The notes beneath the pieces were generated by a model. It did no database searches, was not told where the DNA came from, and saw only the letters and a program-made list of their open reading frames with translations. A program made the position numbers and the translations under genes. Positions 24,885 through 48,445 of a DNA stretch of 48,598 nt are shown here, piece after piece; within the stretch, counting starts at the first letter, position 1, and each line of letters starts with the position of its first letter. The DNA is from Leptospirales bacterium (lineage in GTDB: Bacteria > Spirochaetota > Leptospiria > Turneriellales > JAOUFE01). The stretch is taken from the NCBI GenBank assembly GCA_040326155.1, contig JBEQLE010000023.1, positions 1 through 48,598 of the forward strand, given 5' to 3'.

Positions 24885-25280
24885 TACTTTAACACCTTTG
24901 TCTCTTTTGTGATAATGTCTTCACTCTCACCTACTGATAATGTATGATCAACGCAACTCATTATATGAGCTATTAATTTTTTTTGTTTGCCCGGTGGCAA
25001 ATTGCTTACTTCTATTTTGTAAATACCGCTTATAATTTTATCCATTTTTGCTGAGCCCAATAAGGTAACATATTCATCGCTGAACAAAACAGGATAATTT
25101 TTTAATGTTTCTTCAATACGGACGTACAAATAGATTGGCGCTATGGGCTATCTTTAAAAAACCACGGGCGACATCGCCCATGCCTTCAAATATATTCTTA
25201 AGCTCAGTTTTAAACTCATCACGATTGATGTCTCCCTCGATATTTTGGATTTTTCGTATTAAATCTTCTTTGCGTATCAT
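24884..25280 (-). pseudogene. Hypothetical gene coupled to the R-M gene, apparently frameshifted near 25130
   Basis: The ATG at 25280 overlaps the R-M stop (TAATG). A 55-aa ORF (MIRKEDLIRK...) stops at 25113 while an overlapping frame (24884-25129) continues. Confidence 0.5.
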
Positions 25281-28200: not shown

Positions 28201-28396
28201 CTTCATGAATTACATCTTTATAGGTTTCTGACTTTCCACTTTTGTTAAACACATCCCAACCAAGGGCCTCGAAAAAGGGGTCGAGAAATTCACGCCGTAA
28301 CTGGGTCTCGTTGTATTTTCCCGACTTATAGGCGTCGGCGTGCTCTGAAAATTTACTAATAAGTTGTTGTATTTGATCGGGCAAAGGCATGGTCAT
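25280..28396 (-). CDS. Type IIG restriction-modification fusion (Eco57I/TaqI-C like; REase + N6-adenine MTase + TRD)
   Basis: APDYSF...FVEAKK (PD-(D/E)xK), GVYYTP, VLDPACGSG (motif I), VIGNPPY (motif IV) and a TaqI_C-like tail (LLCILNSK...RLKKQYMEQLPI...IDLLVYKLYDLT). Confidence 0.93.
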   Translation of the reverse strand: MTMPLPDQIQQLISKFSEHADAYKSGKYNETQLRREFLDPFFEALGWDVFNKSGKSETYKDVIHEDSIKVKNKSGVSTRAPDYSFRIGGNRKFFVEAKKPSIVIKDNIDPAYQLRRYGWSANLPLSVLTDFEEFAIYDTTVKPKPTDAASVARVFYCTYTEYEKHWEWIQSIFSPDGIQKDYFEKFAGGKKGKKGTTTVDREFLKEIENWRLDLAKNIALRNEIDTRSLNYSVGVTIDRILFLRICEDRGIEPYEQLSHIADKKDIYGELKQLYHKADQKYNSGLFHFEKEKGRSTHPDELTPNLSIDDKILKGILKKLYYPDSPYEFSVIGADILGNVYEQFLGKVIRLAGKSAKVEEKPEVKKAGGVYYTPRYIVEYIVENTLGEKLKKMSTKDVAGESAKYATPLRVLDPACGSGSFLIFAYQYLLDWHRDWYSANNPAKYKKAVFKSGSSNSADGVEIIEWQLTTSEKKKILLNNIFGVDIDNQAVEVTKLNLLLKVLENESAETLESQLSMFHERALPDLENNIKCGNSLIGPDFYSVNSAGKGEQQDLFTSMSEDEKEKVNVFDWESEWSGIMTGDDVGFDVVIGNPPYVRQEVLGPDFKTYAQNIFETYAGTADLYVYFIEKSLSLLKAKGVYSIIVANKWLRANYGDALRKFLKKKRILELIDFGELPVFEGAKTDTCILKIANDQPKDFYVVKQNKLLLGKEGNPPLDKVVKKLKYHVGINTLEDEGWSLSNESEAKLLSKLKQIGEPLGKFGAGKIHYGIKTALDECFVINNSIKEQLIRNDKNSAELIKPFVFGRDIDRYKQPTVDKWLILLPAGFTDVKRGKVKPEIWLQAKYPEIYNWLKQYEEKCKKRWDKGDYWWELRSCAYYGEFENNKLVWPEIAMNPRATFDSGRLYYPTTVYIFSIPDKYLLCILNSKVAWFCLKNICAVLGDSDSGGRLRLKKQYMEQLPIRTIDFDNSDDKAKHDQMITLVDRMLDLNKRLPEANTPHDKTQLERQIAATDQEIDLLVYKLYDLTDEEIKIVEGDNL

Positions 28397-28486
28397 TTAT
28401 TTCGTATAAAATCAACGGGTCAACCTGCTTTCGACAACGGGGGATAATTACGAATTAATAATAACGAATTCTATCTCTTCACCCCC

Positions 28487-28547
28487 AATCGAATGAAACT
28501 ACATAGAAAAACCGCAGGATTTTTTTGTGAGTAAAATACCACGGAGC
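28487..28547. repeat. Copy B (partial) of the structured repeat
   Basis: AATCGAATGAAACTACATAGAAAAACCGCAGGATTTTTTTGTGAGTAAAATACCACGGAGC matches 31136-31193 and 21898-21938. Confidence 0.88.
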
Positions 28548-28596
28548 AGATGAAAGAGGCTATGGATGAAAAATTGTCGGTTTTCGTATTGCTCAT
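28540..28596 (-). pseudogene. hsdM: Possible 5' stub of a type I R-M methyltransferase gene
   Basis: MSNTKTDNFSSIASFICSV resembles the HsdM N-terminus 'NFS..A.FIWSVADLLRG'. The similarity ends where repeat copy B begins. Only 19 codons. Confidence 0.4.
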
Positions 28597-28812
28597 AGAA
28601 TCGAGCATAGTTCGATCGTAAAAGGCATTGTCAAGATTCTAAAAAATAATCGCAATGTACACATTTCAGTTTAATAATATGAAACGAATGAATTCAAAAT
28701 GGTTCCACAATAGCAGACTCCGGGACCTTATATCTTTCCATGACACTAAATATAGTATTTATTAATTTATCTCATAATTCGCCTAATATTAGTTGCGCAA
28801 TAGCGGTTTGGA

Positions 28813-29502
28813 TTACTTTTTTTGTTTATCCTCAGTATTGTTGTTCACCTGATTTTTTGTAACTTCCTCGAATGCAAATTGCGTTAGCTTAAATATATCT
28901 TTGGCAAGATTATACACTTCGGTGGTTCCGATTTTTGGTTCACCGTTTATCATAGAAAAATTATTTTCTGCATTAATGATTGCATTTTTGATTAAACTCG
29001 GGTGTTTTCTACTATCAAATCCGCCTTCATCCTTAAATACTACAGTATTAACATATTCTTTCCAGGGCTTTGAAATATGTACTTTATCAAATATTGGTAT
29101 TTCATCTTTTTTATGATAGTATAACCATACTTCAAAACACGGATTACTTTGAGCAATTTTCCAATTCTGATGCGTTGCACAATTTTCTCTTAATTCCTCT
29201 ACCTTTTCTCCCCAGGTGTCAGTATCAATAACGAACCAAACATCATCTTCCGTGGTTGGCTTATAAATTGGTGTTTCTGTCTCACTTCCGAATATATCAT
29301 TTTTAGCCTGATCAAATAATCCTGATGGTGAATTATTACTATGCTGACCAGCAGCAACTACTTCAAGTTTTATTTTATGACTAATCCCTCTAAAATATTT
29401 AAAATAAGCTGGCTCCCTTCTACCTCCCTCACAGTAAATAATAATAAGCTTTGCAGTTAGACTTGGCTCCCTCCGTTGAAATTGTCTATTCTTAATTATC
29501 AT
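28813..29502 (-). CDS. rloB: RloB-family (TOPRIM-like) protein
   Basis: IIIYCEG..REPAYF, VWFVIDTD, IAQSNPCFEVWLYYH and TEVYNL motifs; overlaps the upstream ATPase by 11 nt. Confidence 0.88.
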   Translation of the reverse strand: MIIKNRQFQRREPSLTAKLIIIYCEGGRREPAYFKYFRGISHKIKLEVVAAGQHSNNSPSGLFDQAKNDIFGSETETPIYKPTTEDDVWFVIDTDTWGEKVEELRENCATHQNWKIAQSNPCFEVWLYYHKKDEIPIFDKVHISKPWKEYVNTVVFKDEGGFDSRKHPSLIKNAIINAENNFSMINGEPKIGTTEVYNLAKDIFKLTQFAFEEVTKNQVNNNTEDKQKK

Positions 29503-30853
29503 ATTTATGCCAATTTAAATCCTCTAAGTTTGCCAAAAACGGGATTGACCCGTATCGCCCAGCTAAATAACCTCTTCTTATATCTATCGTGGAATGCTCT
29601 TTGTAGTCAGATAATGAATACAAATCGGTCCTTCCTTTATTATCTTTCTCAACAAACCAGATTTCATCTTGCCTAAATAAATCCTGATCCAATAAATTTG
29701 ATTCATGGGTACTAAAAATCAATTGCCCATTAGTATTGTTATCCTTCGAGAATTTATTAACTAATTCTTTAATTAATAAGGGGTGAATGCTTCTTTCTAT
29801 TTCATCTATTATGAAGACTTTATTACCACTAACAACATTTTTAAAAGCTGGAATAAAGTCTAGCAAACGAATAGTCCCATCCGATTCTTCGCCGAGATTA
29901 AAATAGGCTTTGAGATCTTCGCCTCCAGTATGCTCTAATTGAAGTTGCTTTATGAATATTTCTTCATTTTCCCGGACAAGGACTACTTCGTCTCCTGCAT
30001 CACTACGTAAAACGGCCATTCTATCTTTGTCTTTTTCTAATTCTTCAATTAGATTATTTAATTTCTCAGAACCTTCGTCTCCAAAGAACTCTTTAATTTC
30101 ACGTCTCTCGGACTTTATATTACTAATACCCAGATTAAAAGTACACATAATATCTTGAGCGTATTCACGAAACTCTTGATTTATATCTATTTCATGGGCT
30201 ATTGCTGCCGGTCGGTCATCAGGTTTCATGATTTGTAAAGTATTTGCGAACCAATCTAGCGCATGATTAACTTCCTTAAGATCTGGATTATCCAATGTGG
30301 TTAACAGTTTAATAATTGGCTTGTTGTGTTTACTTAAATTTTTCTCTATCACACTTTTTAAGACTAAGTTCTCTTTATCACTCTCAAATTTATCAGAAAA
30401 TTTAATCTGACTTTTCCCACTCTTTAAAATTTTTCTTTCAAACAAAAGTTTATCTTTACCTTTACCCAACTTAGAAATATATAATTCTTCATTAACTACG
30501 ACTTGTTTATCGCCAATTTCTATGGCATAATAGTAAGCTTGCTCTTGTTGGAAAAATTCTACTCCTAAAATAATAGTATTATTGTCAGCATTTGCAAACT
30601 TAAATTTTTGTTTATCAATATTTTTAGGTAGTTGTTCACGGGTAACTATATCCTTTAACATGAGCATAGCATTAATCAAATTGGATTTTCCAGCACCGTT
30701 GGCCCCATAAATCGAAGCTAATTTCAATACTTCAAACCCTTTTTTCACATATTTATGATCACTTAATCTAGTATACCTCGGACTCGGTATCATATTAAAT
30801 TCAACTTCTTTCCCAAAGGATAAAATATTATTGACTGTAAACCTTATTAGCAT
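29492..30853 (-). CDS. RloA-like AAA_21 / abortive-infection ATPase
   Basis: MLIRFTVNNILSF, IYGANGAGKSN (Walker A), EESDGT, FIIDEIERSIHP (Walker B), QLIFSTH, RQDEIWFVEK and YLAGRYGSIP. Confidence 0.92.
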   Translation of the reverse strand: MLIRFTVNNILSFGKEVEFNMIPSPRYTRLSDHKYVKKGFEVLKLASIYGANGAGKSNLINAMLMLKDIVTREQLPKNIDKQKFKFANADNNTIILGVEFFQQEQAYYYAIEIGDKQVVVNEELYISKLGKGKDKLLFERKILKSGKSQIKFSDKFESDKENLVLKSVIEKNLSKHNKPIIKLLTTLDNPDLKEVNHALDWFANTLQIMKPDDRPAAIAHEIDINQEFREYAQDIMCTFNLGISNIKSERREIKEFFGDEGSEKLNNLIEELEKDKDRMAVLRSDAGDEVVLVRENEEIFIKQLQLEHTGGEDLKAYFNLGEESDGTIRLLDFIPAFKNVVSGNKVFIIDEIERSIHPLLIKELVNKFSKDNNTNGQLIFSTHESNLLDQDLFRQDEIWFVEKDNKGRTDLYSLSDYKEHSTIDIRRGYLAGRYGSIPFLANLEDLNWHKYDN

Positions 30854-34026: not shown

Positions 34027-34028
34027 AT

Positions 34029-34446
34029 TCCGCTGAAGGCGGAGGGCTCCGGCCCGGTTGCGGTGTAGCTTTCCTTAAAAAAACTTCACCCGCAAGAAAA
34101 CGCCATCTTACAAACCCCGCCGTCGGCGATTCTATTTTAAAGTCTGAGCGCCACTCGGCAAACAGTTGTCCTCCCTCCGGTCGGCCTCGGCGATTCTGAG
34201 TTGCTCAAAGTGCAACACGAATTTCTAACCGCTCCTTCGCCCTGGGCGAGATTGAGGTATGCAGGCGGACCGCGTTGGGGAAATCCACCACTTTATGGTG
34301 GGGAAAAAACCAACCCGGCCCTGCCCTACTCTCTTCAGATCGGCAAATACCAGACCCCCATAATATCGTGGGGTTAAGCGTAGGCTCGCCCGCAGGGCAG
34401 CCGTAGCGGAAGGGGAGACTGTAAAAAGTCTGCGACGGAGGCTACT
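34029..34446. other. GC-rich non-coding hairpin cluster (REP/MITE-like mosaic or structured RNA)
   Basis: Many inverted repeats: TCCGC/GCGGA, CGCCG/CGGCG, GTTGC/GCAAC, TCGCCC/GGGCGA, CCACCA/TGGTGG nested in GTTGG/CCAAC and GCAGG/CCTGC, and ACCCC/GGGGT. TCGGCGATTCT occurs twice. Confidence 0.6.
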
Positions 34447-34500
34447 CAAAAATGAAATATTTAATATTGTGTAACCATCACATCTTTAAGCCGCGCGCAA

Positions 34501-34583
34501 TTTAATATTTTTTATATTTTTTTATTATTTTTTTTGTATTTTATATATAAATACTTTACATACAACTTTGGTTCTGTTATTGT
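34501..34583 (+). promoter_or_regulatory. Putative sigma70 promoter for the downstream operon
   Basis: AT-rich UP-like tract, TTTACA (34555-34560), 17-nt spacer and extended -10 TGnTATTGT (34578-34583). SD GAGGAGG lies before ATG 34742. Confidence 0.5.
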
Positions 34584-34741
34584 CCCCACACTGAAGGATC
34601 GTTTCTTCGGTTAAAAAACATAGATAAGCGCGTATAAAATAAATAAATACAATCGTATTCCTATAACGCAAGATCAAACAGGGTTATGCGCTACGAAATA
34701 CATTCATGCGCACTGAATTTATTTGAGTCTGAGGAGGTTGT

Positions 34742-35908
34742 ATGGATTGGCGACACGAACCGATATGGGATCCCTATATAGGCAGTAGAGTAGTAGTTTT
34801 TTTCAACACTGTAAATTCTGGCGAGAAAATTGTTGAGCGCCTCGGAACCGTTACCGGCGGCCCTAACAAAATAATAGAACTTAGCCCGGAAGATGGCGCG
34901 TCAATTCTTGAGTACCGCAACTCCTTGCCCGATCAAGTTTTTACTGCGGCGAGTCAACTCGGCGATATAAAAAATATCGGCCCCGATCAGTTGTATCTGA
35001 TATTTACCGCCTTTCGTGAGCTTGAACTTGAGAATTCTCTTGAAGCCGAAATACTCGGTTTTTTAAATGCAGTCAATGACACGAACGAAATAGTCACTCG
35101 CATCTGGCTCGATCCAAAGTCCGCTAACGTTAAAGAGGAAGGCCATCGCCGCCTCTACCTGGATTATTTCTTTAAAACCACAGACTCTACCACGGGTAAA
35201 ACCGTAGACGCGGCTCCCGCAACCACCGCAATCAAAGCAGAACTTGCAAAAAACATTTTAACGGAACGCAATAAACTTACCGGTAAGCAATTTACGGTAT
35301 TTGAAGAGCTCCAGAAAGTAAGCAAACTGGGGGCTGTTGATTTTCATAACATCCTTTACAGTTTTGCGAAAATTCCGCTCAACTCTCCGGGCGACCTGGC
35401 CGCTCTCATCAAAACCGATACGTGGATAGCGTCGCTGCCCTCAGGTTTTACCGAACTCACCGATTTTACGCTCGCCGATATCGAAACGACCTGGGACGCC
35501 GCAACTTCGAGTTTTTCAAACGTGACGTTTGCTTTGCAAGGTCCGACGCCCTGGGAACTGACTTTGGGCGAGGCAACGAACCCAACGCCGATCTTGGACG
35601 ATGTTACGTTTTACTATACAATTCAAAATCCGGGTACGCCGGACGAGACGATTACCGCCGAGATGAAAACAGTCCACCTTGCAGGCGATGTCGAGGTTCC
35701 TTTGAGTGTTCCATTAGCTGGCGATACGGTGCCCGCTGAGACGGGGGACATCAGCTGGAATCTGGAGCAGCCGACTACGGTCGCTTCGTTGCAGGATGTG
35801 TCGGGGCTGTTTGATGTCGAGACTGCGTCGCTTTTGCCGGAGGGTTTGCTGAGTTTTAGCGGGGGTGTAGAGTTGCAAGCGTTGGATGTCAGCGTGGTGG
35901 ATGCGTGA
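34742..35908 (+). CDS. Hypothetical protein: two HhH (ComEA-like) repeats + acidic beta-module related to the downstream giant protein
   Basis: ASILEYRNSLPDQVFTAASQLGDIKNIGPD and AKNILTERNKLTGKQFTVFEELQKVSKLGAVD; the C-terminal part resembles modules of 39399-47390. Confidence 0.7.
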   Translation: MDWRHEPIWDPYIGSRVVVFFNTVNSGEKIVERLGTVTGGPNKIIELSPEDGASILEYRNSLPDQVFTAASQLGDIKNIGPDQLYLIFTAFRELELENSLEAEILGFLNAVNDTNEIVTRIWLDPKSANVKEEGHRRLYLDYFFKTTDSTTGKTVDAAPATTAIKAELAKNILTERNKLTGKQFTVFEELQKVSKLGAVDFHNILYSFAKIPLNSPGDLAALIKTDTWIASLPSGFTELTDFTLADIETTWDAATSSFSNVTFALQGPTPWELTLGEATNPTPILDDVTFYYTIQNPGTPDETITAEMKTVHLAGDVEVPLSVPLAGDTVPAETGDISWNLEQPTTVASLQDVSGLFDVETASLLPEGLLSFSGGVELQALDVSVVDA

Positions 35909-35938: not shown

Positions 35939-38900
35939 ATGGCTGAGAAGAATAATATGGTGAAGGTAAAATTTCTGGTAAAGACGGCCGAATACAACCA
36001 AGGGTTGTTAAATGAAAAGCATGTTCCTATTCACTCCTATTTTTTGTATCTGTTTTGGAAACAAGATGATGAATACAAACTTTTTTTACAAACCGATGAT
36101 AAAAACAAAAAATTAAAAGTTGCGGGAAAACATATTCCGGTTGTAGCCAAACCCGACGTAGCCAATAGTGAACTTTGCGACTATCCGTTTGTAAGGAAAG
36201 AGACTTATTACGGCTGCTTTAGCGGGAAAGAGTTAGACGTCAACGCGCTGAAAACAATCGCAATGACTTCGCCAGAAAGGTTGATTCATATTTACCCAAC
36301 GGGATCAACGTACAAAATTGATCATTCTTTTTTTTATTGGCTGATGAAAGCGGCTGAGTTAGAATCGGATACAAAAACCAGCCATGAAAATATAAACCTC
36401 CTTCTTGAAACTCTGGAAAAGAAAACTGACGTGAATGAAGATGAAAAATGGATTATTGACAACCAATGGTGCACCCTGCCGAACAATCAGTGTTTAGATA
36501 TCAAAAGCGCTCTAACAACGATAAAAAATAAATTATCCAACCCATCGCAAACAATACAGGCAATCTTTGATTCCTCTTTAAATGAAACAATGGCCTGTTA
36601 TAAAACAATCGAGATTGCCCCCACTAGAAAAGCCTGTTCTAAAGATCAAAAATGGTCGGGCGCGATTAGAGAAGGTTTTTCGCATCACATATTAACGAGT
36701 AACCTACGGGCTCATTTGATTGCCCCGACGTTGTCCGATAAAAATACAGTAACAGGCGATTTACTTAAAAGTTTCAGTGACAACAACATATCCAACGATC
36801 TTACAAATCTCTTTTATAAAGACGAAAATAATTCTTCTATTGGTTACGGCAATGTAAATATACTCAACACTCTGACAAAAAGCGCTATACAACAATATGG
36901 AACAAATGATGCGCAATCCGACTCTTTGGATCTTAAACCGCTTGAAAGAAATATTTTTTCTTACGTTGATAGCGTAGCCGAAACAAACAGTTTTCAATAT
37001 GACTGGGACAGTTTTGATAATGCCAAGAGGAAAATACTATTTGAATTCGGTATTGATTTAAATTCTTATAGCAACTTTTTTATATCGTTGTTTCGAGACG
37101 CTCTTGAATGTTTTGAGCAAGCCACACTGCATCATGAAAAAACAGCAAATCGCAAATTCAATATATCCCCTTACAATGTCAAAATAAGCTATTCGGAAAC
37201 CGAAAAATCAGAGACTGGCGCTTATGAACTCATTAGCGCAAGCTCTGTATTGAATATTAAATCGATCATTGAGCATACTACTGAGAATACTACTCTTAAA
37301 AATTCAATTCTTTTTCTAGACGGATATACAAACCAGCATATTTTTGAAAAAAATGAATTTTCAATTCCAAAACAAAAAGAGGAATCTATTTCAGCATCGG
37401 AATTCACTGCCCAAACGCAAGTTGACGATACTGTAAAATTTATCGAACTCATTCCCTTTGATCAAAATCTAGTAACCTACAATTTTTTAAAAAATGAAAC
37501 GGGCAGAAAACGGCAAGATTCAACCATAGTCCCGATATCGGCATGGGAAAAACTCCGGGCAAAACTGGAAACTGAAAATTTTCCGATGTTAACAATGGAC
37601 GCTTTCAAACATATGCGCCTGACAGGCGCAAACCTGGCCATTCCAAAGTTTGAGAGATTTCAATCGTCTACCGGGCAATACGTTGCGCCCGATCTTCAAA
37701 GCGCGACAGACTGGGTCGGCAACCAGGGGGAAACGGGATTTTTTACAAAAAATACTATTAATAGTTTTTATGAAGATTTAAATAATCGGGAATGGAGAAA
37801 TCGAGCAGGAACTTGGCAAGGTTCCGGTAATCAAAATAATTTCCCAGTCTACGATGCGCTTGGTAAATTTGTCAGCAACAAACTGATTTCAATAAAAGCC
37901 TCTGGTGGCGGGGCGAGCGACAACCAGAACAAGCAGAGGGATGTGAGAAGGAGGTATTGGGAAACAGGTTTTAAAAAGACTTTTGGGGGACACAGTAATC
38001 CCAGGCATAAAAATTATAGAAATTTCAATAATGTCGCAATACAGCCAGACAATCTTAATACGAACAGAGCAGATGCAATTTATAGATCTTATTTAGCGAT
38101 TAACAGTGATGATGTAGCTTCCTTTCGAGAAAACCTTAAGAATTCCGCAGACGCAAATATCTTTAACAGACAGATATCCGGGGTAAACGACCTGGGTAAT
38201 AGGGCGGTAAAACACAAGCTCATGTACGAATTTTTCAATATTATTCTCGAAAAAGAAAATATTAAATTGAATGGCGTTCGTATCCCAACTCTAGAGGCTT
38301 TATTCGCACAACCTTCAGGTACGAACATCAATTCCGTTACCGAAAAATTAAAAACGATTTTAGCGAAACGAATCATCAGCAATGGCAGAACAAACGCCGA
38401 AGTTCGTAACAGTATTCATGCGAGAATTGGTACGGGGAGATTAGGACGTTTACAACCATACCAATACAACTACGTGACATCCGAGTATATTTATGTAAAA
38501 AGCCAGGCATCGACTATCAAAGCTTCTTTAAAATCTGCAGGAAGAAACGCAGCCTACGGATCCATTTTTACTACCATATTGAGTGGTCATAAACTATTGA
38601 CTAAAGATGGAGAAAACACCGGAGACGATTATTTAAAATTTGGTTCTGACATTGCGCTTGGCATCGTTGGCGACGCCGTATCATCGGCAGGCGAAACAGG
38701 AGTTCTTTCGCGCGGGCTTGTTCAAGGAACCGGGATTATAAAGACGTTTGGACGAACCGTCGGAAAATCTTTCACAAGTGGTTTAGCAGCGCCTATTGTG
38801 GAAGTCGGAACTATGTTGTTCGAAGATCATTATTTAAATACGAAAGATTATAGTTATACGGATTACTCCGCAAAAGGTACCAGAGCGGCCGTTGGAGGAA

Positions 38901-39364
38901 TTTTTGCAGCCGGCGCCGGCGCGGTCGGCACCTTAATTTTTCCCGGTATTGGGACTATAGCAGGTATGGCAATTGGTTATGGCGCCTATATGGTTTATGA
39001 ACTTCTGGCAGGGCAAGCCATTGAAGACGGCGTTCGCAGTGTATTAAGCGAAGAAACCGAACAACCATCGGTATCAGCAAAGAAAATGCCGCTCCAAAAT
39101 ATAGTTGGAAATGTAGACTATACTACTTTCAAGTATTTTCGAATTATCCATCAGAAATTTACCATAGAAGATAACATATTGGTACAACCGACAGGGACAT
39201 ACATTAGTATGATGTACCCGGAGAAAGACGATGAAGATGTTTATTTACAAGTAAAAGTCGTCAACACCCGGCAAAACGAGCTATTCGATAGCCTCGGCGA
39301 TACATTTCTTATTCCAACTACAAATCTTATGAAATCCAAATCACAGGTCGGGCCAATTGTTTAA
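35939..39364 (+). CDS. Putative polymorphic-toxin-like protein: unknown N-domain, REase-fold nuclease motif, Gly/Ala-rich membrane helices
   Basis: GNQGE...DLN...NFPVYD...ISIK, then AAVGGIFAAGAGAVGTLIFPGIGTIAGMAIGYGAY. The N-terminus is paralogous to 47465-48445. Confidence 0.6.
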   Translation: MAEKNNMVKVKFLVKTAEYNQGLLNEKHVPIHSYFLYLFWKQDDEYKLFLQTDDKNKKLKVAGKHIPVVAKPDVANSELCDYPFVRKETYYGCFSGKELDVNALKTIAMTSPERLIHIYPTGSTYKIDHSFFYWLMKAAELESDTKTSHENINLLLETLEKKTDVNEDEKWIIDNQWCTLPNNQCLDIKSALTTIKNKLSNPSQTIQAIFDSSLNETMACYKTIEIAPTRKACSKDQKWSGAIREGFSHHILTSNLRAHLIAPTLSDKNTVTGDLLKSFSDNNISNDLTNLFYKDENNSSIGYGNVNILNTLTKSAIQQYGTNDAQSDSLDLKPLERNIFSYVDSVAETNSFQYDWDSFDNAKRKILFEFGIDLNSYSNFFISLFRDALECFEQATLHHEKTANRKFNISPYNVKISYSETEKSETGAYELISASSVLNIKSIIEHTTENTTLKNSILFLDGYTNQHIFEKNEFSIPKQKEESISASEFTAQTQVDDTVKFIELIPFDQNLVTYNFLKNETGRKRQDSTIVPISAWEKLRAKLETENFPMLTMDAFKHMRLTGANLAIPKFERFQSSTGQYVAPDLQSATDWVGNQGETGFFTKNTINSFYEDLNNREWRNRAGTWQGSGNQNNFPVYDALGKFVSNKLISIKASGGGASDNQNKQRDVRRRYWETGFKKTFGGHSNPRHKNYRNFNNVAIQPDNLNTNRADAIYRSYLAINSDDVASFRENLKNSADANIFNRQISGVNDLGNRAVKHKLMYEFFNIILEKENIKLNGVRIPTLEALFAQPSGTNINSVTEKLKTILAKRIISNGRTNAEVRNSIHARIGTGRLGRLQPYQYNYVTSEYIYVKSQASTIKASLKSAGRNAAYGSIFTTILSGHKLLTKDGENTGDDYLKFGSDIALGIVGDAVSSAGETGVLSRGLVQGTGIIKTFGRTVGKSFTSGLAAPIVEVGTMLFEDHYLNTKDYSYTDYSAKGTRAAVGGIFAAGAGAVGTLIFPGIGTIAGMAIGYGAYMVYELLAGQAIEDGVRSVLSEETEQPSVSAKKMPLQNIVGNVDYTTFKYFRIIHQKFTIEDNILVQPTGTYISMMYPEKDDEDVYLQVKVVNTRQNELFDSLGDTFLIPTTNLMKSKSQVGPIV

Positions 39365-39398: not shown

Positions 39399-42300
39399 AT
39401 GAAAACATTAACCACAAACAACCTCACCGCTCAACTCCAACAACCCATCACCGTCCTGATGGGTTTTCCCGAAGTAGTTGCGCTCAACATCGCGATTTCT
39501 CAAACCCCCGACGGACAATCGCTTCTTACCCTCTCCGGTGACATCGACCTCTTTGGAAACATCTGCCCATTCACTCTTACCTACGATAAAACCATCTGGC
39601 AATTTCAATTAACAATCGCACAAGGCATAACACTTCCTTTCAACACGGCGGATCTCAAAGAAATATTTGGCGGCGCAGAGCTGCTGGGAAATTTTCCCGC
39701 AACATCAGGCTTTGATACCATCGACGTTTCAGAACTAACGCTGGAGTTTAATCCCGATTCGATTTTTCCGTTGCCGATGACCGAACTAAACCATGTCGAA
39801 ATCGTGGCGGGGCTGCAAGACTGGAAAATCGTCGAAGCGATCAATCTATTTTTAACCAACATTCGACTCGACTTTGACCTGAGTTTTCAGAAAGTTGTAG
39901 ACGCGCTAGCCGATCCGTTGGCGCCGCAAAGCCCTTTAGAACTGACCAGTTTTTCAGGGGCAATCGAAGCGGGGGCGGCTATCATCAACAACGGCGTCAC
40001 CGAGCTTGAGCTGCCAACTTTTCGAGCCTATTTGCCCATCACAGACGAAGGGCTATTGATGGAGATGGTAAACGAGTTTTATGACATCCCCACGTTGCAA
40101 AACCTCAGCCCGCTTCTTGGTGGAACCGATTTAAGTCTTTATATTCCCCCGCAACTTCCTGCAATTCCTTCGTTGCAACTATCTGAATTTACTTTTAACC
40201 TCGATCGAGATTACACCGGTTTGAACTTTATGGACTTCACCCTTGGTTTCCCGCAGGGTTATGCCTGGGTGTTGATCGCAGGCAAACTGCAGCTGTCCGA
40301 TTTTAAACTCAACTTCGATTTTCCGGCACCGCGCCTTCGCTTAGGCGTTGCCATGGGTTTCGGAGATCTCGCCGCAGAGTTTGTCACACTACCCATGGTC
40401 GCCGATGTTGAATTTACCGAATCAAATCAATTTGAGAAATTGACCGTTGAACTCGGCTCCCTTGAAGGCACCCACGACCTGAATTATTCCGTAAGCTCTG
40501 CTCATATATCAGCCCTGGGCTTTGACATCAATTCCATGATTCCGGGCATCGACCAAAGTGAATTTCTCGTCGATCATTTTCTACTTGAGTTTGACGCCAA
40601 CATGAATCTTGTTCGCACGATGCTTTCGATCTCATACCCCGGAAGCCTCGATCTCATCGCGAATAAATTTTCGATCGTGAACCCCGACATCGAAGTTGAA
40701 GTTCACTTTAGCGCCCCCATAAAATACAACGGCATTTTAAAAGCCGACCTAACGATCGGAGCTGACCAGGCGACCTACATACCGATCGAGCTGAGCTTTG
40801 ACGACACCGACGAGTGGGTACTCTCACTCAATAACGATGACACTGGTGAAAATGTAGCCCTGCCGAGTATTACCTCGCTTGCATCTTTAATTGGCGACTC
40901 TACCTACTTCGACAGTCTTCCATCGAATTTCAACTTCGAAGGAATCGAACTTTCCGATTTCGAATTGCGCTTTCCTCATCCGGTAAATCAAAAGATCAAC
41001 CATCTGTTTTTTACTCTGGAGATGCCTGCGAGAATGACGATCATTCCTTCTTTAAGTGTGTCGAAACTCAAGTTTCACTTTGACGCCGATTTTACCATCG
41101 GGCCAACACTCGCAGATATGCAGGCGACGCTCCAACTGAACGGAGTCGTCACCCTGGCTCTTGGTCCAGAAACGGGCGATCTCGAAATTCCGCTGTTGAT
41201 CACTAAATCTCTCACCGAGTGGACCGTCGAATTTGACTTGATGCCCGGCGACACGGTTATCCTTCCTTTTTCTAAACTTCCTTTGTTGCTTGATAACGCT
41301 CCTATCAGCGACGTTTTACGCGAAGACCTGATTTTGACAGACGTCGAAGTCGAAAGGTTAGAGTTGAGGTTTCCCGTAACGTTTGATCGACTCGACTTTG
41401 CCTCCTTTAAAGGAAATGTCACCGCCTGGGAAGTTCTGCCTACCCTGCAATTGTCGCTTGTGAAGTTTGAAGTCGACATGAACATCCCGATGCCGCTCTC
41501 CCTGGAAACACTCTGGGGAACTTTCCAGGGGCAGACAAAAGTCGGTACTTTGTTGCTGCCGACACTACGCGGTACCCTACCCTACCAGGATTCAGGACTT
41601 GCCCTCGAAATGGTCGAAGGGGAATACCCTATACCGAGCCTCACACAAATGAAACCCTTGCTCGGAGGCTTTGATCTTTCGACGGTTTTACCCTCACAGT
41701 TCCCCGCCATCAGCTCTCTTTTATTAACACGATTTTTAGTACATTTTGACCCAGAATTCAGCGGTCTACACTACATGGCCTTTCGTTTGGTATTGCCACC
41801 CGCAACAAACCCTGATGGAACCCAAAGCGATAGCGCATGGGATCTCTTTCCACTGGTTCCCAACACTGTAATATTAAAGCAACTCGAATTCGATTTTACC
41901 TTTCCCGAACCCCACTTCAAATTGGCCGGTATAGTCGGGCTGGGCTCATCCGATGAATTCCCGATGACGGCCTCTTTCTCGATCGAAGATGGCAGTTTTT
42001 CAGGACTGATCTTTGAACTCGGTGCTCTAGATCAAAGTGACACTTGGAGTTACAAAATTGGCGGAGCCGATCTATCGCTGATGGGTTTTAACCTCACGAC
42101 GATGCTGCCCGGTTTAGATACATTGGTTCTGGCTCTCACCCGATTTCGGCTAGAGTTCGACAATGCGATGAGTTTGAAACAACTCTACTTTCAAGTTCAT
42201 TCAGAGGGTTCTTGGGATCTGATCGCCAATCGTCTCAGCATCACCAACCTCAGCGTTGATCTCACCATTGGCTTTCCATCACCATACGCTTTTGAAGGTT

Positions 42301-45300
42301 TTGTAGCAGCCGATTTCGATTTGCATTTAGATAGTGTTGAGAAATTCCCCATCTTACTGACGATCCCGAAAACGGGCGACTGGAGTCTGGCTTTGGATCT
42401 GCCAACACCAGACGACTCGGTCTCGTTTGCCGGTGTTACTGACCTTTCGGCCTTAGTTGGTTTAAACTTAGATACCTTTATGCCGCCGGGCTTGTCGATC
42501 AGTGCGTTTAACCTGACCGAATTGGCGATGCAGTTTCCTCATCCTTCAGAACAGAAAATCTCGACCGTATTTGTCGGAGCCAATATGCCCGACACCTGGC
42601 AGATTGTACCGAACCTGACGCTTGGCGATCTGAATCTTTATACTGAAATTGATTTCACCCAAACACCAGCGGAAGTCACATTTCAAGTGACGAGCGTTAT
42701 CGGCGTAGGGGCGGTAAAGATACCGCTTCTGATTTCCCGAGATCCGAGCCAATGGAAGTTCGGCTTAAACCCGGAATTCGAAACCGAGTTTTTTATCCCC
42801 TTTACAAAAATGACCGGTTGGTTGGGCACGCTGCTGCCATCACTGCCTTCCCCCATTTCAGGGGCCAACATTGCCCTGCGAGAACTGATGTTTACTTTTT
42901 CGGGTGACATGGCAAATTGGAAAAATTTTGAATGCAGGGGAAGTCTCGATTCTAGTTGGACGCCAGTAGCCTCGCTCACCAGTTTTAAAATCGATGAACT
43001 TGACTTTTACGTTCAAATCGACGCCACCCCGGCTGAACCGGTTTTAACCCTGGAAGTAACCGGGGTCATTATTCTGGGGGAAATTCGTGTACCGATCAAG
43101 ATCGTCAAAACGACCACCGAGTGGATCTTTTCGTTAAATCTTGCCCCCGGTTCTGATATAGAAAGTGTAGCTTTGCCGTTTAGTCAACTCGAAGAGTGGT
43201 TTGGTCAAAACCTGATTGCTCTTCCGACGGTTCTTACCATCGGCGATGTAGGAATTTCCGCACTGGAGATTATCTTTTCATCGAATATGAGAATATGGAA
43301 AAGTTTCTCCTGTGATGTTTCTCTCAACAAAACCTGGATGCTCACCGATACCTTCGGTTTAACGATCAAACGCTTTACGCTCGATATGGAGTTTCCGTTG
43401 AACGCAACCAAGCGCAAAATTGTGGCGGCGATGCATTGTAATATCCTGGCAGATTCTCAGACTTTCGGGGTGATCGTTGCCATCGATACGCTCAACGAAA
43501 AATGGAATCTCACTCTGGTTCCTGAACAAAATATTGTGATCAGCGCACTCGGTCCGTTAAGCCATATTTTTAATATCGCGACCCTGACCACCCAGATGAT
43601 GCCGATGGAAGTTGCGCTTGGGGATATCCACCTCGAAAGTCTGTCGGTTACCCTCGACTTCGATTTTAATATTCTCGGCATGCTTTTGACTGGCACGCTC
43701 GATAAAGGGCAGATCAAAGTCACCCTGCCGATGCTCGAAGTCTCCGACGAGGAAGACCAGAAGAGTCTGACGGCTTCGGCGACGGTGAACGATCTAAAAC
43801 TTTCCCAGGCCGAGAATCTGGATATTATTTTGACATCCAATGTCACGTTAGCTGTAACCGGTCTGCCGACTATTTTACAAAACGCTCTTCCAACCGATGT
43901 AGATGCGATAGTAACGGCGTCAAAGACCGAAGCCAGCGTCACCGTAAACAACACACAATCTTTTACACTGCCCCAAATCAAATTTGCCAACCAACGGGTG
44001 AACATTAAAGGAGAGTTTAAAGGAATTAAATTTACCTATGCCGTAGGCGGACCCGAAATCTCTACCGATGTGACCTTCTTTCTGGTACACGAGGGCACAC
44101 ATCAGCTCAATGAGATGATGCCGGTCGACCTGCTCAACGATGAAGTACATTTTCGCCTGAGTATCAATCAGGTAGACAAAGCTAAAATTGCCCTTACCGA
44201 ATGGCCCTTCAAGTTGCCGACAGTCAAAAAACTCAAAAGAGAAGGTTGGATACTTTTCGACTTTGGAGATGCCGGGGCGGTTACACTGAATCTGCCAACG
44301 TTCAGCCATAATGGCACGAGTTTTAAAGCTAATGGCCAGGTGAAATTCCCGGAAGACGGCGACAGTATCATCACTTTAAAAGATCCGGTGGGCGACGCAG
44401 CGCCTGTCGAAGAGACCTACATCGCAAAAGCGCTTGGTATTCCCTTAGGATTTATTAAAAAGTTTCTTGCGCAATCAGGATTGTCGTTTATCGGAGATAT
44501 GCTGCCCGATTCGATTCCGCTTGATCCGGACTTGGCAACGGTTCTCCCCGGCCTTACCGGCAGCACAACCGGATTGCCAACTGCCTTCGATAGTTACAAA
44601 GAGATCACAAACCCTCGGGCTTTTGACTTTTATATTGAGACCGTTTCGGGCGGTTCTGTGAGATTCGACTTTGCCACGACCGCAGATGAAAACGGCGTCA
44701 GAGAGCCGATGAAAGTACTCTTAAAAGACCCACTCGGCGTCACCATTATGCTAGGCGTGCAGGTCTCCAGAATTGCCATCGGTGAAACAGGCGGGGTCAT
44801 GACTTTCGATTTTGACGCACGAGTTGACATCTTTTTTGCGCCGCTTATTTTGGCGATGCAAAATATGCCGAACTTGAGCATACCGTTGCTGCCAGATTTT
44901 AAAGATGTACATTTAACTTTCATTGCTGACAAAGTGTTTGGAGTCATCGCAGGGTGGCCCATACCGATTTTCTTTAACGAGTTGAGCGTGAGCTATCTCG
45001 GGGTCGAAGGGCTGGAGCTTAAAACCGTCTGGAAAAATCCGATGCCCGGTCATGGTATCAATGAGATCATTAAAGTGGCCGCGCTTTTACCGCAGTTTGC
45101 CAAATTTGCTTTCAACCCGACTTATCTATTGCCAACCGACCCGACCGATCCCGAGTACCCCGACCTGGGCGACGCGCAGCTTGATTTTAGAATTGAAGAT
45201 TTGTACTTAAAAACTCCGGAGTATCTCGGCGGCGTTGTTCTGGGTCATCAATATACAGACGATAACCCGTTAATTGAGTTGCATAATACCGAAGTATTCA

Positions 45301-47390
45301 ATCTGTTAAACGCTTCGAAAATGCCCACGCCTGCAAATCTCTTGAAAGTGATTCCATCCAGCAAAAGATCAGGCTCTGGCGACATTTCGTTTGGTCCCAT
45401 TGCTTCAAATTTCGCATGGGCCATTAGTAATCCGGGGGAATTTTTAGCAGGCTATAGTGGTCCACTGCCCAGTGAGAGTCTGCTCGTTCTTTTCGGCGAC
45501 TCTGATGAAACACAACCAACGGACGATGAAAAAAGCATAATCGTCATTGAAGGCCACTGGGGCATCGGAAATATCATCAGCTCCGATGTTATGTTTGCCA
45601 TGCAGGTGGGTGGATTTGATGGGATGGCCCTCGGTATCGCCGCTAGAGGAAGCATTGCCAATGATTTTCTCGGTTTCGACATTGCGGGAAGCATGATGTT
45701 TGATATTCCGGGTAAATCTTTTGCGCTCGATGCGTTTTTAGCTCTGAAACTGCTCGGCACGGATGTTGCCACTCTTACCGTTGGCTTGAGCGAAGAGGAG
45801 TTTTCACTTGCAGGAACCGTAGAACTCTTTAACAACCCGATTATCCAAGCCGAGGGAACCCTCACCGGTACGATTAAGAGTACCGGCGCTTTCTCGATTA
45901 CGGGTAATATTGACGCATCCGGTGGACTTCTCTCACTCGGGGGGCCTGAGGTAGATATTTCAGCGACTCTTTCGAACAGCGGCGCTACGTTGACCGGGGA
46001 CTTTACGATTATCGATATCGCGCTCTTGCGCTTGAAAGGAACGATCGACATTTCTCTGAGTAGTCAAGGGCAACTTGCTCTCTCCGGAACGGTAGAAACT
46101 GGCGGTGGAATTTTTGCCATGAGCGAGATTAGCATCGAAGGAAATTCCGATCTTGCCGCTACGGTCAGTACGCCCCCGAGCTTGATTCCTTTTCAAAATA
46201 TTAAAATCAAAGCTGAATTTAGCGTTCTGGATACGCCCTTTATCAAGTTAGGCGGCAGTAAACTTACCGCCACGCTGACCGATACCTCCCTCGATTTCGA
46301 AGCGCTGATTTCGGGGCCGCAGGGCTTTATCGGTTTTTCCGATGAAGGCGAGAACCAGATGAAAATCACGGGTACCGATATCGGTACGAGCGATAGCAAA
46401 CTCAGCATCGCCGGTGATTTTGGCATCAATACGCCCCTTTTGAAAATCGGGTGCCACATATCTGGTACGATCAACTCTACTTTTAATCTTGATGTTACGG
46501 GAACGATCACCTCCTCAATAGGGGGATTTGACCTGACAGGGGATAACACCTCGGTCTCTCTGACTGAAGATTCGTTATCTATTACGGCAGAGTGGCTTGG
46601 GTCTGAGTTTACGTTAGATGCGGAAATTGATGGGACAAATATCAACCTCAAAGGGACGGCGATGTTCACCATACCGTTTCCGGCCCCCTGGAAAATCCCC
46701 AACCCGCTACCTGGCGGCGATGACCTCGATTTAGAAAAGCTCTTCGGGCTCGATATTTCTATAAGCGCCGGAGTAGCGGTAGAGTTCAGCAATACCTCCT
46801 ATTCGGCGGGGGCAGCGCTCACCTGTACTTTCTGTGGCGTCGACTTTACAATTGACGCTAACCTCGATATCGATCTGAGTGAAATGAACTCCTTAGACGA
46901 TCTGAAAGATGTCATCATAGAATTTGCAAAGAGCTCTCTGAGCCTCGCCAGTTTTTTCACCGACTCGATCTGGTGGGCTCAAGATTTAATCAAAGCGGTG
47001 AAATACTCTTTCGAGAATTCACTACAGGAGAACACACCGACCAACTTCACCCTGATCAAAACCTCCCTCTTTGAAATTGGGTGTGACATTAGCAGCAGCG
47101 ACGGCTCCTCCCTCACGGTAGATGTGAACGTCTCGGCGGGCGGTTTCTTGCAACTTCCCGATGCGCCCAAAGTAACCTTCGGCTGGACTGAAGTCACCAT
47201 AGAGTTAGAGTTCGATTCCAACAAAACATTACCCCCGCCGGGAATGCCTTTTTCGCTGGAGGGCGACACCACCATAACCATCGGCACATCGGGCTTTGAA
47301 CTCAGCGGTGAAATGGAAGTCAAACTCCTGGGCGAAACCATCTTCAAGGGCGCCGTCGGAAGCAGCAATTTACTGGGGAATCTGGTTTAG
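39399..47390 (+). CDS. Giant (2663 aa) acidic beta-repeat protein of unknown function (repeating beta-groove-like)
   Basis: Uninterrupted 8-kb ORF with alternating hydrophobic beta-strand patterning, ~125-130-aa modules and a ~520-aa duplication. No evident signal peptide. Confidence 0.85.
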   Translation: MKTLTTNNLTAQLQQPITVLMGFPEVVALNIAISQTPDGQSLLTLSGDIDLFGNICPFTLTYDKTIWQFQLTIAQGITLPFNTADLKEIFGGAELLGNFPATSGFDTIDVSELTLEFNPDSIFPLPMTELNHVEIVAGLQDWKIVEAINLFLTNIRLDFDLSFQKVVDALADPLAPQSPLELTSFSGAIEAGAAIINNGVTELELPTFRAYLPITDEGLLMEMVNEFYDIPTLQNLSPLLGGTDLSLYIPPQLPAIPSLQLSEFTFNLDRDYTGLNFMDFTLGFPQGYAWVLIAGKLQLSDFKLNFDFPAPRLRLGVAMGFGDLAAEFVTLPMVADVEFTESNQFEKLTVELGSLEGTHDLNYSVSSAHISALGFDINSMIPGIDQSEFLVDHFLLEFDANMNLVRTMLSISYPGSLDLIANKFSIVNPDIEVEVHFSAPIKYNGILKADLTIGADQATYIPIELSFDDTDEWVLSLNNDDTGENVALPSITSLASLIGDSTYFDSLPSNFNFEGIELSDFELRFPHPVNQKINHLFFTLEMPARMTIIPSLSVSKLKFHFDADFTIGPTLADMQATLQLNGVVTLALGPETGDLEIPLLITKSLTEWTVEFDLMPGDTVILPFSKLPLLLDNAPISDVLREDLILTDVEVERLELRFPVTFDRLDFASFKGNVTAWEVLPTLQLSLVKFEVDMNIPMPLSLETLWGTFQGQTKVGTLLLPTLRGTLPYQDSGLALEMVEGEYPIPSLTQMKPLLGGFDLSTVLPSQFPAISSLLLTRFLVHFDPEFSGLHYMAFRLVLPPATNPDGTQSDSAWDLFPLVPNTVILKQLEFDFTFPEPHFKLAGIVGLGSSDEFPMTASFSIEDGSFSGLIFELGALDQSDTWSYKIGGADLSLMGFNLTTMLPGLDTLVLALTRFRLEFDNAMSLKQLYFQVHSEGSWDLIANRLSITNLSVDLTIGFPSPYAFEGFVAADFDLHLDSVEKFPILLTIPKTGDWSLALDLPTPDDSVSFAGVTDLSALVGLNLDTFMPPGLSISAFNLTELAMQFPHPSEQKISTVFVGANMPDTWQIVPNLTLGDLNLYTEIDFTQTPAEVTFQVTSVIGVGAVKIPLLISRDPSQWKFGLNPEFETEFFIPFTKMTGWLGTLLPSLPSPISGANIALRELMFTFSGDMANWKNFECRGSLDSSWTPVASLTSFKIDELDFYVQIDATPAEPVLTLEVTGVIILGEIRVPIKIVKTTTEWIFSLNLAPGSDIESVALPFSQLEEWFGQNLIALPTVLTIGDVGISALEIIFSSNMRIWKSFSCDVSLNKTWMLTDTFGLTIKRFTLDMEFPLNATKRKIVAAMHCNILADSQTFGVIVAIDTLNEKWNLTLVPEQNIVISALGPLSHIFNIATLTTQMMPMEVALGDIHLESLSVTLDFDFNILGMLLTGTLDKGQIKVTLPMLEVSDEEDQKSLTASATVNDLKLSQAENLDIILTSNVTLAVTGLPTILQNALPTDVDAIVTASKTEASVTVNNTQSFTLPQIKFANQRVNIKGEFKGIKFTYAVGGPEISTDVTFFLVHEGTHQLNEMMPVDLLNDEVHFRLSINQVDKAKIALTEWPFKLPTVKKLKREGWILFDFGDAGAVTLNLPTFSHNGTSFKANGQVKFPEDGDSIITLKDPVGDAAPVEETYIAKALGIPLGFIKKFLAQSGLSFIGDMLPDSIPLDPDLATVLPGLTGSTTGLPTAFDSYKEITNPRAFDFYIETVSGGSVRFDFATTADENGVREPMKVLLKDPLGVTIMLGVQVSRIAIGETGGVMTFDFDARVDIFFAPLILAMQNMPNLSIPLLPDFKDVHLTFIADKVFGVIAGWPIPIFFNELSVSYLGVEGLELKTVWKNPMPGHGINEIIKVAALLPQFAKFAFNPTYLLPTDPTDPEYPDLGDAQLDFRIEDLYLKTPEYLGGVVLGHQYTDDNPLIELHNTEVFNLLNASKMPTPANLLKVIPSSKRSGSGDISFGPIASNFAWAISNPGEFLAGYSGPLPSESLLVLFGDSDETQPTDDEKSIIVIEGHWGIGNIISSDVMFAMQVGGFDGMALGIAARGSIANDFLGFDIAGSMMFDIPGKSFALDAFLALKLLGTDVATLTVGLSEEEFSLAGTVELFNNPIIQAEGTLTGTIKSTGAFSITGNIDASGGLLSLGGPEVDISATLSNSGATLTGDFTIIDIALLRLKGTIDISLSSQGQLALSGTVETGGGIFAMSEISIEGNSDLAATVSTPPSLIPFQNIKIKAEFSVLDTPFIKLGGSKLTATLTDTSLDFEALISGPQGFIGFSDEGENQMKITGTDIGTSDSKLSIAGDFGINTPLLKIGCHISGTINSTFNLDVTGTITSSIGGFDLTGDNTSVSLTEDSLSITAEWLGSEFTLDAEIDGTNINLKGTAMFTIPFPAPWKIPNPLPGGDDLDLEKLFGLDISISAGVAVEFSNTSYSAGAALTCTFCGVDFTIDANLDIDLSEMNSLDDLKDVIIEFAKSSLSLASFFTDSIWWAQDLIKAVKYSFENSLQENTPTNFTLIKTSLFEIGCDISSSDGSSLTVDVNVSAGGFLQLPDAPKVTFGWTEVTIELEFDSNKTLPPPGMPFSLEGDTTITIGTSGFELSGEMEVKLLGETIFKGAVGSSNLLGNLV

Positions 47391-47464: not shown

Positions 47465-48445
47465 ATGCCGACATCAACTGATACTACAAACACGTCAGTC
47501 ACGAAAGTGAAGCTGCCGCTTGATCGTGTCTTCTGCCAGTTTGAGTGTTATCAGCAAACTGAGAAGACAGACGCTAATGGAAAGACGTCGCAAGTTTTTG
47601 ATTACAAGCCGGTGGATTCTTATAAGCTCTATCTGTTTTATAAAAAGAACGACCAGTTTTTTCGCATGCCCGGCAACACCCCTCCTGCTGAGCCGATTGT
47701 GACCGCAGATGACCATGCCGAATACATCATTTCGGATAAAGATGTTACCGAAAAAAAGTGCAACTACGCTTTTAAGAAAGGCGCGACTTACTATGGGTAT
47801 TTTGCGGGGAAAGAACTGACGGAGGCTGAGATTACGGGGTTGATGGGTGAGCGGAGTTATGTGTTGTTGAAGATAGTTCCATCTGACAGCGGTGTGTTGA
47901 GATTGGATTTTTCATTGTTTCAATATATAGTTTTATTGCAACAACTTGAAGACGGATTAACCGGTGATGTAGCCTTGACAAAAATAAACACCGTTTACAA
48001 ATCAAATTTCAGTTCTTTGACTTCCGACATAGAAAAACAACTCTACAAAAATGATTTTATGATTGCAACAAATAATGAACCCATTCAAATGAGCCGTTTC
48101 TTTGAAGCTTTATCGGCTCAAAAAAAAGGAGAAGTACCTGTATGGGAGAAGTCTCTGGCAGACGTAGTAACGAATGCTATAACTTTTCATGAAGATCCCA
48201 ATGCGACAGCTACAAACAAGCTTTTGTCCTTTGAGAATGCCTTGCAAAAAATTACGGATCAGCAATACCCCAAGGGTATTTTAGAAAGTCATGTGTTAGG
48301 AGCAACACTGGGAAAAGTAGTACCGCCTCCCGGCACTCCTTATTCTTTTACCTACTCGATAGAAGAGTTTTTTTATCAGAGTAATTTTTCTGAACTTACA
48401 AAGAATTATATAGAAAATTTTTATATCGAGGTTTCTAATGTCTGA
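47465..48445 (+). CDS. Hypothetical protein, stand-alone paralogue of the N-terminal region of 35939-39364
   Basis: SD AGAGGT. PVDSYKLYLFYK...CNYAFKKGATYYGYFAGKEL aligns with PIHSYFLYLFWK...CDYPFVRKETYYGCFSGKEL. Confidence 0.8.
   Translation: MPTSTDTTNTSVTKVKLPLDRVFCQFECYQQTEKTDANGKTSQVFDYKPVDSYKLYLFYKKNDQFFRMPGNTPPAEPIVTADDHAEYIISDKDVTEKKCNYAFKKGATYYGYFAGKELTEAEITGLMGERSYVLLKIVPSDSGVLRLDFSLFQYIVLLQQLEDGLTGDVALTKINTVYKSNFSSLTSDIEKQLYKNDFMIATNNEPIQMSRFFEALSAQKKGEVPVWEKSLADVVTNAITFHEDPNATATNKLLSFENALQKITDQQYPKGILESHVLGATLGKVVPPPGTPYSFTYSIEEFFYQSNFSELTKNYIENFYIEVSNV

Follow-up and report, generated by a model that had tools for sequence, protein, structure and literature searches.

The contig JBEQLE010000023.1 of a Leptospirales bacterium, 48,598 bases long and analysed here in full as the window, is present as a complete contig in an assembly of 4.26 Mb that is 94.7% complete. 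Near its downstream end it carries four genes, P0003, P0002, P0001 and P0004, which lie on one strand with spacers of 30, 34 and 74 bases and are a four-gene operon. The contig edge follows 153 bases past P0004, so the right side of the locus is cut off. The third of these genes, P0001, encodes a giant repetitive protein, and this protein, its predicted joint with P0003 and its possible partners P0002 and P0004 are the subject of this report. An earlier note, made from the letters of this DNA, had inferred that P0001 is an unanchored bacterial groove or rod protein lengthened by duplication.

P0001 is encoded by one uninterrupted frame of 2,663 amino acids (aa), as that note had stated, and the twelve motifs it quoted were all found at the residues assigned to them. 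Among these are the pairs that first suggested a long internal repeat: LPTFRAYLP at residue 205 and LPTLRGTLP at 720, GSLDLIANKFSI at 415 and GSWDLIANRLSI at 937, and FPHPVNQKI at 525 and FPHPSEQKI at 1046. In a windowed self-BLAST, residues ~40–627 pair with residues ~590–1138 at 30–32% identity and E values down to 1e-35, giving a tandem block of ~520 aa with offsets of 515–546 aa between paired segments. Alignment with MAFFT gives 33% identity over 525 residues between unit 2 (residues 586–1110) and unit 1 (residues 40–600), and the best inter-unit BLAST score is 236 bits, compared with 20.8 ± 2.6 when unit 2 was shuffled 100 times (maximum 29.3), which upholds the claim of a ~520-aa tandem super-repeat of ~125-aa beta modules. 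A hidden Markov model (HMM) grown from three P0001 modules finds 11 matches of ~125–130 aa each within residues 29–1418 and leaves two diverged, module-sized gaps at 244–390 and 776–912; therefore the super-repeat consists of four modules, is present twice, and is followed by two modules of the fourth type. Judged from the sequence, about 12 modules fill residues 1–1418. A second and different repeat was detected by self-BLAST at residues ~2116–2420. The protein has a net charge of −198 and contains eight cysteines. The earlier note saw no membrane anchor, and crude hydropathy scans agree: no N-terminal signal peptide or membrane anchor was detected, the first 50 residues hold no signal-like run, and no 19-residue window before residue 1094 has a Kyte-Doolittle mean of 1.6 or more.

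The AlphaFold2 (AF2) model of residues 615–1464, calculated from an alignment of 11 rows, has a mean predicted local distance difference test score (pLDDT) of 74.4 and a predicted template modelling score (pTM) of 0.58. According to DSSP, most of the six modelled modules contain six long strands of ~6–15 residues together with a single short strand and one or two short helices, and the first contains five long strands. The mean face difference of the 34 longest strands is 2.53, compared with 1.61 ± 0.20 (maximum 2.31) in 500 within-strand shuffles, and the hydrophobic face of the modelled strands is 59% Leu, Phe, Val or Ile. The model and the shuffle test thus agree with the earlier description of modules built from several amphipathic strands plus a short helix or Pro-rich loop. 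We read the successive modules as one continuous amphipathic up-and-down sheet, with ~19 strands per three modules, that would be open and not closed into a barrel. In the fold searches, ~19 strands across three modules align sequentially to VDAC/Tom40, the ApoB belt and TCP10. The Foldseek list from the PDB consists of large antiparallel sheets, namely barrels, Rhs/Tc shells and ApoB, and a single entry reaches E ≤ 1e-3, LptDE, with a template modelling (TM) score of 0.11–0.13; the search of BFVD gave none at E ≤ 1e-3, and the fold matches of the P0001 model are generic. No Ig-like domain occurs in these lists and the strands of the AF2 model form one continuous sheet, so that the outcome named in advance as refuting, a string of Ig-like sandwiches or a beta-helix, did not appear.

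Table 1. Coordinates in the window of the four genes and of the parts of P0001 (residue numbers are those of the protein).
Feature	Position	Strand	Evidence
P0003, 388 aa, proposed N-terminal rod cap	34742..35908	+	HHH_3, phmmer, tail conservation, complex prediction
P0002, 1,141 aa, candidate partner or cargo	35939..39364	+	one homologue, P0032
P0001, putative shaft subunit, whole open reading frame including stop	39399..47390	+	single open frame, 2,663 aa; orthologue P0005
P0001 super-repeat unit 1, aa 46-591, four ~125-aa modules	39534..41171	+	self-BLAST, MAFFT, module HMM
P0001 super-repeat unit 2, aa 592-1138, four modules	41172..42812	+	self-BLAST, MAFFT, module HMM, AF2 model
P0001 two extra modules of the fourth type, aa 1160-1418	42876..43652	+	module HMM matches 1160-1291 and 1287-1418; pLDDT ~70-85
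P0001 central domain, aa 1567-2110, conserved and defining the core family, matching no known family	44097..45728	+	phmmer/hmmsearch in P0005, P0006, P0007, P0008, P0009, P0013, P0021
P0001 beta-hairpin repeat region, aa 2111-2450	45729..46748	+	internal repeats 2116-2204 ~ 2321-2406; long strand pairs, pLDDT 55-70
P0001 C-terminal end, aa 2451-2663, least conserved part, with strands after two long helices	46749..47387	+	
P0004, 326 aa, paralogous to the N-terminal region of P0002 but with another C-terminal part	47465..48445	+	BLASTP, six-frame search

The first gene of the operon, P0003, encodes two ComEA-like helix-hairpin-helix (HhH) units at residues ~17–207, one beta module at residues ~208–370 and a conserved terminal strand at residues 374–388. 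Its match to the Pfam family HHH_3 has an E value of 4.7e-6; the two HhH units were counted by eye, both in P0003 and at the N-terminus of P0007, a P0001 relative of 3,257 aa. The first 275 residues of P0003 match residues 9–247 of P0007 (phmmer, E 2.4e-17), so that P0007 carries this head and the shaft in one chain as a fusion. The beta module of P0003 in turn matches modules of many family members in phmmer searches. P0003 has two orthologues, 64% and 59% identical, and across these three proteins 19 of the last 25 residues of P0003 are invariant; all three stop just after a strand that resembles the first strand of a module. When residues 1–260 of P0001 and 200–388 of P0003 were submitted to complex prediction, with the partner folded without an alignment, the score was 0.70, compared with 0.29 for the best of three controls. 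Among solved complexes 116 of 157 reach this mark, and among mismatched pairs two of 215; these counts apply only roughly, because the prediction was run with our own alignment. The runs agree in at least 98% of contacts, the partner has a pLDDT of at least 67, and the predicted pairing is antiparallel between residues 374–388 of P0003 and 1–15 of P0001 (for example, residue 12 with 377 and 9 with 381). No similar complex was found among solved structures, and thus the result is not the recall of a known structure. The gene fusion in P0007 supports this predicted joint.

The two remaining genes of the operon resemble each other in their N-terminal region. P0002 has a conserved N-domain (residues 1–135), a variable body, a Gly-zipper-like hydrophobic segment at residues ~983–1013, with a hydropathy peak of 1.84 at 983–1002, and a C-terminal domain. 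Compared with its homologue P0032 it is 79% identical over residues 1–135, 47% identical over the Gly-zipper stretch (residues 941–1035) and 22–32% identical over other stretches. P0002 has no match in Pfam, NCBIfam, PADLOC or the PDB, and the P0002/P0032 profile finds none among PDB sequences at E ≤ 1. P0004 matches residues 30–142 of P0002 by BLASTP (E 6e-12), and a six-frame search widens the match to residues 47–282 of P0004. The bodies of P0002 and P0004 are variable and possibly membrane-inserting. The records of P0032 and of P0033, one of the P0003 orthologues, each name a contig of 8,052 bases, which suggests that the adjacency of P0003 and P0002 is conserved. The operon is a mosaic in its composition: GC content at third codon positions (GC3) is 0.52–0.53 in P0003 and P0001 and 0.37–0.41 in the interleaved P0002 and P0004, the latter being close to the rest of the contig, where most genes have 0.25–0.41 (TauE 0.49). 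The net charge of P0003 and P0001 is −7 to −8 per 100 aa. It may be that rod genes and partner genes differ in their history.

P0001 itself belongs to a family that, as far as sequence searches reach, is tiny and without a name. P0001 has no match in Pfam, NCBIfam, PADLOC or PHROGs at E ≤ 0.1, and the P0001/P0005 profile has none among PDB sequences at E ≤ 10. A word-indexed search of 5.8 billion proteins returned P0005 as the sole relative, with 2,632 aa, the same start and 62% identity end to end; it has no Pfam family at E ≤ 1e-3. An exhaustive HMMER search of 1,835,955,588 representatives with a profile of the two units found 27 proteins at E ≤ 1e-3, eight of them at E ≤ 1e-10, and all ten of the clusters looked up are singletons with one contig each. 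Local comparisons define a core family that shares the modules and the ~540-aa central domain, namely P0005, P0006, P0007, P0008, P0009, P0013 and P0021. The repeat block occurs once in P0008 and P0009, twice in P0001 and P0005 and about six times in P0006 (5,343 aa), and therefore block duplication sets the length of the repeat region, which is the lengthening by duplication foreseen in the earlier note. A crude hydropathy check of 16 family members found none with a signal peptide or N-terminal anchor. Among 26 of the 27 profile matches scanned with Pfam (P0006 was left out as too long), five carry the lectin-type LamG_3, two carry DUF6603 (P0017 and P0028), P0007 has HHH_3 at its N-terminus, and fn3, a ricin-type domain, Ig_J and DUF5648 each occur in single distant members. 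Two members also have unusual C-terminal ends: P0007 duplicates its helical-plus-strand region and finishes in a tail that is rich in cysteine and in which Cys, Val, Ser, Asp and Ala predominate, and P0008 carries about ten additional hairpin repeats plus ~400 unmatched residues that extend its C-terminus.

The distribution of the family is as sparse as its membership. The P0001 gene was found in none of 60 relatives' genomes, and a search of 400 further genomes of the phylum for the central domain was likewise negative. When 185,579 species genomes were scanned with two patterns, 79 and 26 matches came up, none of which was confirmed. Among metagenome contigs the P0005 pattern gave 37 matches, none confirmed, and of 206 matches to a second pattern four were confirmed, limited to the central domain at 23–25% identity in unrelated contexts. 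In the ESM Atlas all 30 of the nearest clusters to the two halves of P0001 are unnamed, and the nearest named cluster, with scores of 0.80 and 0.83, contains DUF6603 in 24% of its members and provides no more than a lead. P0001 is thus explained neither by any library nor by any solved structure.

Our best reading, tentative and held at slightly less than even confidence, is that P0001 is the shaft of a leaderless, very acidic, modular beta-sheet rod of a rare unnamed family, with P0003 as its head and with exchangeable partners. The number of blocks would set the length of the rod, and the modules, each of six long strands and a short one plus short helices, would join into a continuous sheet with one strongly hydrophobic face. 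With ~12 modules of 6–7 strands apiece, a monomeric rod would by our estimate measure roughly 35–40 nm. P0003 would extend this sheet by laying its conserved last strand antiparallel to the first strand of P0001, and would thereby place a head of a nucleic-acid-binding type at the N-terminal end of the rod. P0002 and P0004 would be exchangeable partners or cargo that probably dock on the rod by their shared N-domain, with P0002 contributing a Gly-zipper-like membrane segment. The rod would be made in the cytoplasm and serve as a scaffold or a contact or delivery device with one fixed end and interchangeable partners; a leaderless modular scaffold or delivery rod is our best guess at the function.

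Several points weigh against this reading. The continuity of the sheet was read from alignments with high root-mean-square deviation (rmsd) rather than from coordinates, and the alignments behind the two AF2 models are shallow, with 11 and 8 rows. The second model, of residues 1465–2663, is poor (pLDDT 55.5); it therefore gives no structural explanation of the central domain and the C-terminal end, and its fold matches (teneurin, Tc shells and spike pieces) were not used as evidence. The joint of P0001 and P0003 is a model confidence and not a measurement; edge strands pair easily, and the unrelated control that scored 0.29 still had 29 confident contacts. The HhH assignment in P0003 barely reaches the Pfam cut-off (27.1 against 27 bits), and DNA binding by these units, which we infer, is predicted only from the family name. 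Contact of P0002 and P0004 with the rod is likewise inferred, and conservation of the gene order comes only from P0033 and P0032, each recorded on a contig of that one length, 8,052 bases. Lastly, the LamG_3 domains of the relatives suit extracellular binding better than a cytoplasmic scaffold.

Among known systems the closest in general build are the repeating beta-groove (RBG) or bridge-like lipid transfer proteins (BLTP), such as VPS13, ATG2, BLTP1-3, AsmA, TamB and YhdP, which like P0001 are very long and made of repeated units of ~100–150 aa with antiparallel strands followed by a loop or helix. As in the P0001 model, their units merge into a continuous amphipathic sheet whose length follows the number of units. 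An unanchored groove of this kind, in which the sheet curls into a U with its hydrophobic face inside and carries lipids or other hydrophobic molecules like AsmA/TamB/YhdP or VPS13, is what the earlier note had in mind; the continuous amphipathic sheet stands in the model, whereas neither a chorein, AsmA or TamB match nor a five-strand unit was found and membership is not shown. According to PMC12066543, an RBG unit consists of five antiparallel strands that curve to a U and finish with a loop, and the units follow a chorein domain at the N-terminus. By comparison, most P0001 modules have six long strands and one short one in the AF2 model (pLDDT 74), and P0001 gave no Pfam-A or NCBIfam family at E ≤ 0.1, the chorein-N and AsmA N-domains included. 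Bacterial AsmA-like proteins have an N-terminal transmembrane anchor, whereas crude hydropathy reveals none in P0001, and P0001 further differs in its extreme acidity and in being an island gene and not a housekeeping gene. Other than 5vtg_B, the best 50 matches of the fold searches include no RBG family (VPS13, ATG2, BLTP1 or full TamB), a result that does not imply their exclusion. P0001 may work like a groove protein, yet it cannot be filed as an RBG member, and we regard the groove reading as unlikely; the model points to a build resembling RBG/AsmA bridges in general, membership is not demonstrable, and no test that was run indicated lipid transfer. The likeness to the lipid-carrier sheets of ApoB100 (beta-belt, 9bde/9ea7) and lipovitellin (1lsh), with TM scores of at most 0.11, an rmsd of 5–10 Å and no sequence relation, is a generic resemblance of long meander sheets.

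The relation to DUF6603-type giants, which the earlier note had raised as possible, holds through the module and not through the domain. The DUF6603 (PF20248) giants P0017 and P0028 (Pfam E 1e-145 and 1e-141) share the beta module at their N-terminus, with library-wide repeat-profile E values of 1.6e-7 and 9.7e-5, a third such giant (genome G294) matches the module HMM at E 4.3e-4, and like P0001 they are leaderless giants in multi-gene operons. P0001 itself contains neither DUF6603 nor AsmA at E ≤ 0.1 in Pfam, and an identity of its central domain with DUF6603 was rejected at an hhalign probability of 0.1% against two DUF6603 regions. DUF6603 has no match in the host genome. That the island is a DUF6603 cassette was rejected for the one cassette examined (L017/L018), whose five neighbours have no match below E 0.05 to P0002, P0003 or P0004. 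A full-text search on the two names DUF6603 and PF20248 found no paper.

Two further explanations were considered. One is a homotrimeric fibre or spike of a phage-tail-like or other lysis-released particle, assembled in the cytoplasm and anchored by P0003 or by the N-terminus, with the C-terminal end binding the target. Phage tail fibres and polymorphic toxins combine a conserved N-terminal adaptor with a variable body, which is like P0002 compared with P0032 and like P0004 with its different C-terminus, and the swappable lectin-type domains of the shaft relatives are a further likeness. Nevertheless, the system has no match to PHROGs at E ≤ 0.1, to BFVD at E ≤ 1e-3, nor to PADLOC or toxin families, no secretion, phage or tail genes lie nearby in the 48.6-kb contig, and the spike matches, which lie where the model has a pLDDT below 50, do not exceed the noise. 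With a module model that is self-consistent as a monomer (pTM 0.58), we consider a fibre quite unlikely. The other is a giant surface or matrix protein exported by a non-Sec, type I-like route, whose HhH cap would bind extracellular DNA in a biofilm. Adhesins secreted by type I systems are typically acidic, poor in cysteine, without an N-terminal signal and of giant beta-repeat build, and P0001 shares each of these traits; the ComEA-type HhH units and the lectin-type domains of relatives also favour such a protein. HHH_3 is matched both by P0003 and by the N-terminus of P0007 (30.7 bits). ComEA has a signal peptide or membrane anchor, whereas P0003 has neither and instead has its HhH units fused to a beta module as the proposed head of a giant rod. 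Against export stand the lack of a match to HemolysinCabind or any other RTX or adhesin repeat family at E ≤ 0.1, and the absence of an ABC transporter and membrane fusion protein pair among the 19 other open reading frames of the window and of TolC genes within it, though the contig ends so soon after P0004 that further genes, those for export among them, may lie beyond it; the build from two polypeptides, moreover, fits the export of an unfolded chain poorly. We judge a secreted matrix protein improbable. The leaderless rod with a P0003 head stays the reading that we prefer.

The rest of the contig carries genes of signalling and defence. Positions 1114–15382 hold eight densely packed signalling genes, including PAS hybrid histidine kinases, response regulators (RR), an RR-HD_5 protein of phosphodiesterase type and an RR-cyclase. 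They are followed on the minus strand by a same-strand trio at 15443–21853 of a FecR-like protein, a CHASE2 adenylate/guanylate cyclase and a TPR-CHAT protease-like protein of 1,254 aa. An ankyrin-repeat protein of 460 aa is encoded at 23163–24545. A stretch at 25280–30853 (minus strand), a few kb upstream of the giant-protein operon, looks like a small defence island, with a 1,038-aa fused restriction-modification enzyme of Eco57I/MmeI type (Eco57I E 2.6e-45, N6_Mtase, TaqI_C) after which come an RloB-like protein and an AAA_21 ATPase. Ahead of P0003, the 715 bases at 34027–34741 contain no open reading frame of 100 aa or more; Rfam gave no family across the 48,598-base window, this gap included, and scans for promoter-like sequences and terminators gave no excess over shuffled sequence.

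The CHAT and CHASE2 genes had suggested a cyanobacterial host, which is ruled out by the absence of a match to Photo_RC (photosynthetic reaction centre) in the host genome, with a positive control. The host genome has three genes of the Omp85 family, and because Omp85 proteins are present the host is a diderm. With positive controls, Pfam TamB (PF04357) was found in none of 21 genomes (the host together with 20 relatives from its order) and Pfam AsmA (PF05170) had no match in the host genome; the AsmA-like proteins of the order are either too diverged for the Pfam profiles or lacking.

Giant leaderless beta-repeat proteins, the DUF6603 group included, are so far catalogued in databases, and this locus offers a small and tractable entry point to them: a four-gene operon, a length logic based on block number, a 15-residue pairing prediction backed by a gene fusion, and a pair of partners with a conserved adaptor domain. 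The most far-reaching proposal, which we think unlikely, is a new bacterial machine, a leaderless beta-ribbon rod of adjustable length whose polypeptides would be jointed strand to strand, with a nucleic-acid-binding head and adaptor-docked partners, including a glycine-zipper one that would insert into membranes. Such a machine would serve for delivery or contact and would have no relation to the secretion systems known so far, to phage tails or to bridges of AsmA type. Bolder still is the alternative that P0001 would be the first unanchored RBG-like conduit. If the sheet is an open hydrophobic groove, the family would be a bridge-like protein without anchor or chorein domain and would bear on the origin of RBG-type folds; a scaffold that serves exchangeable membrane-active partners would represent a new principle of delivery.

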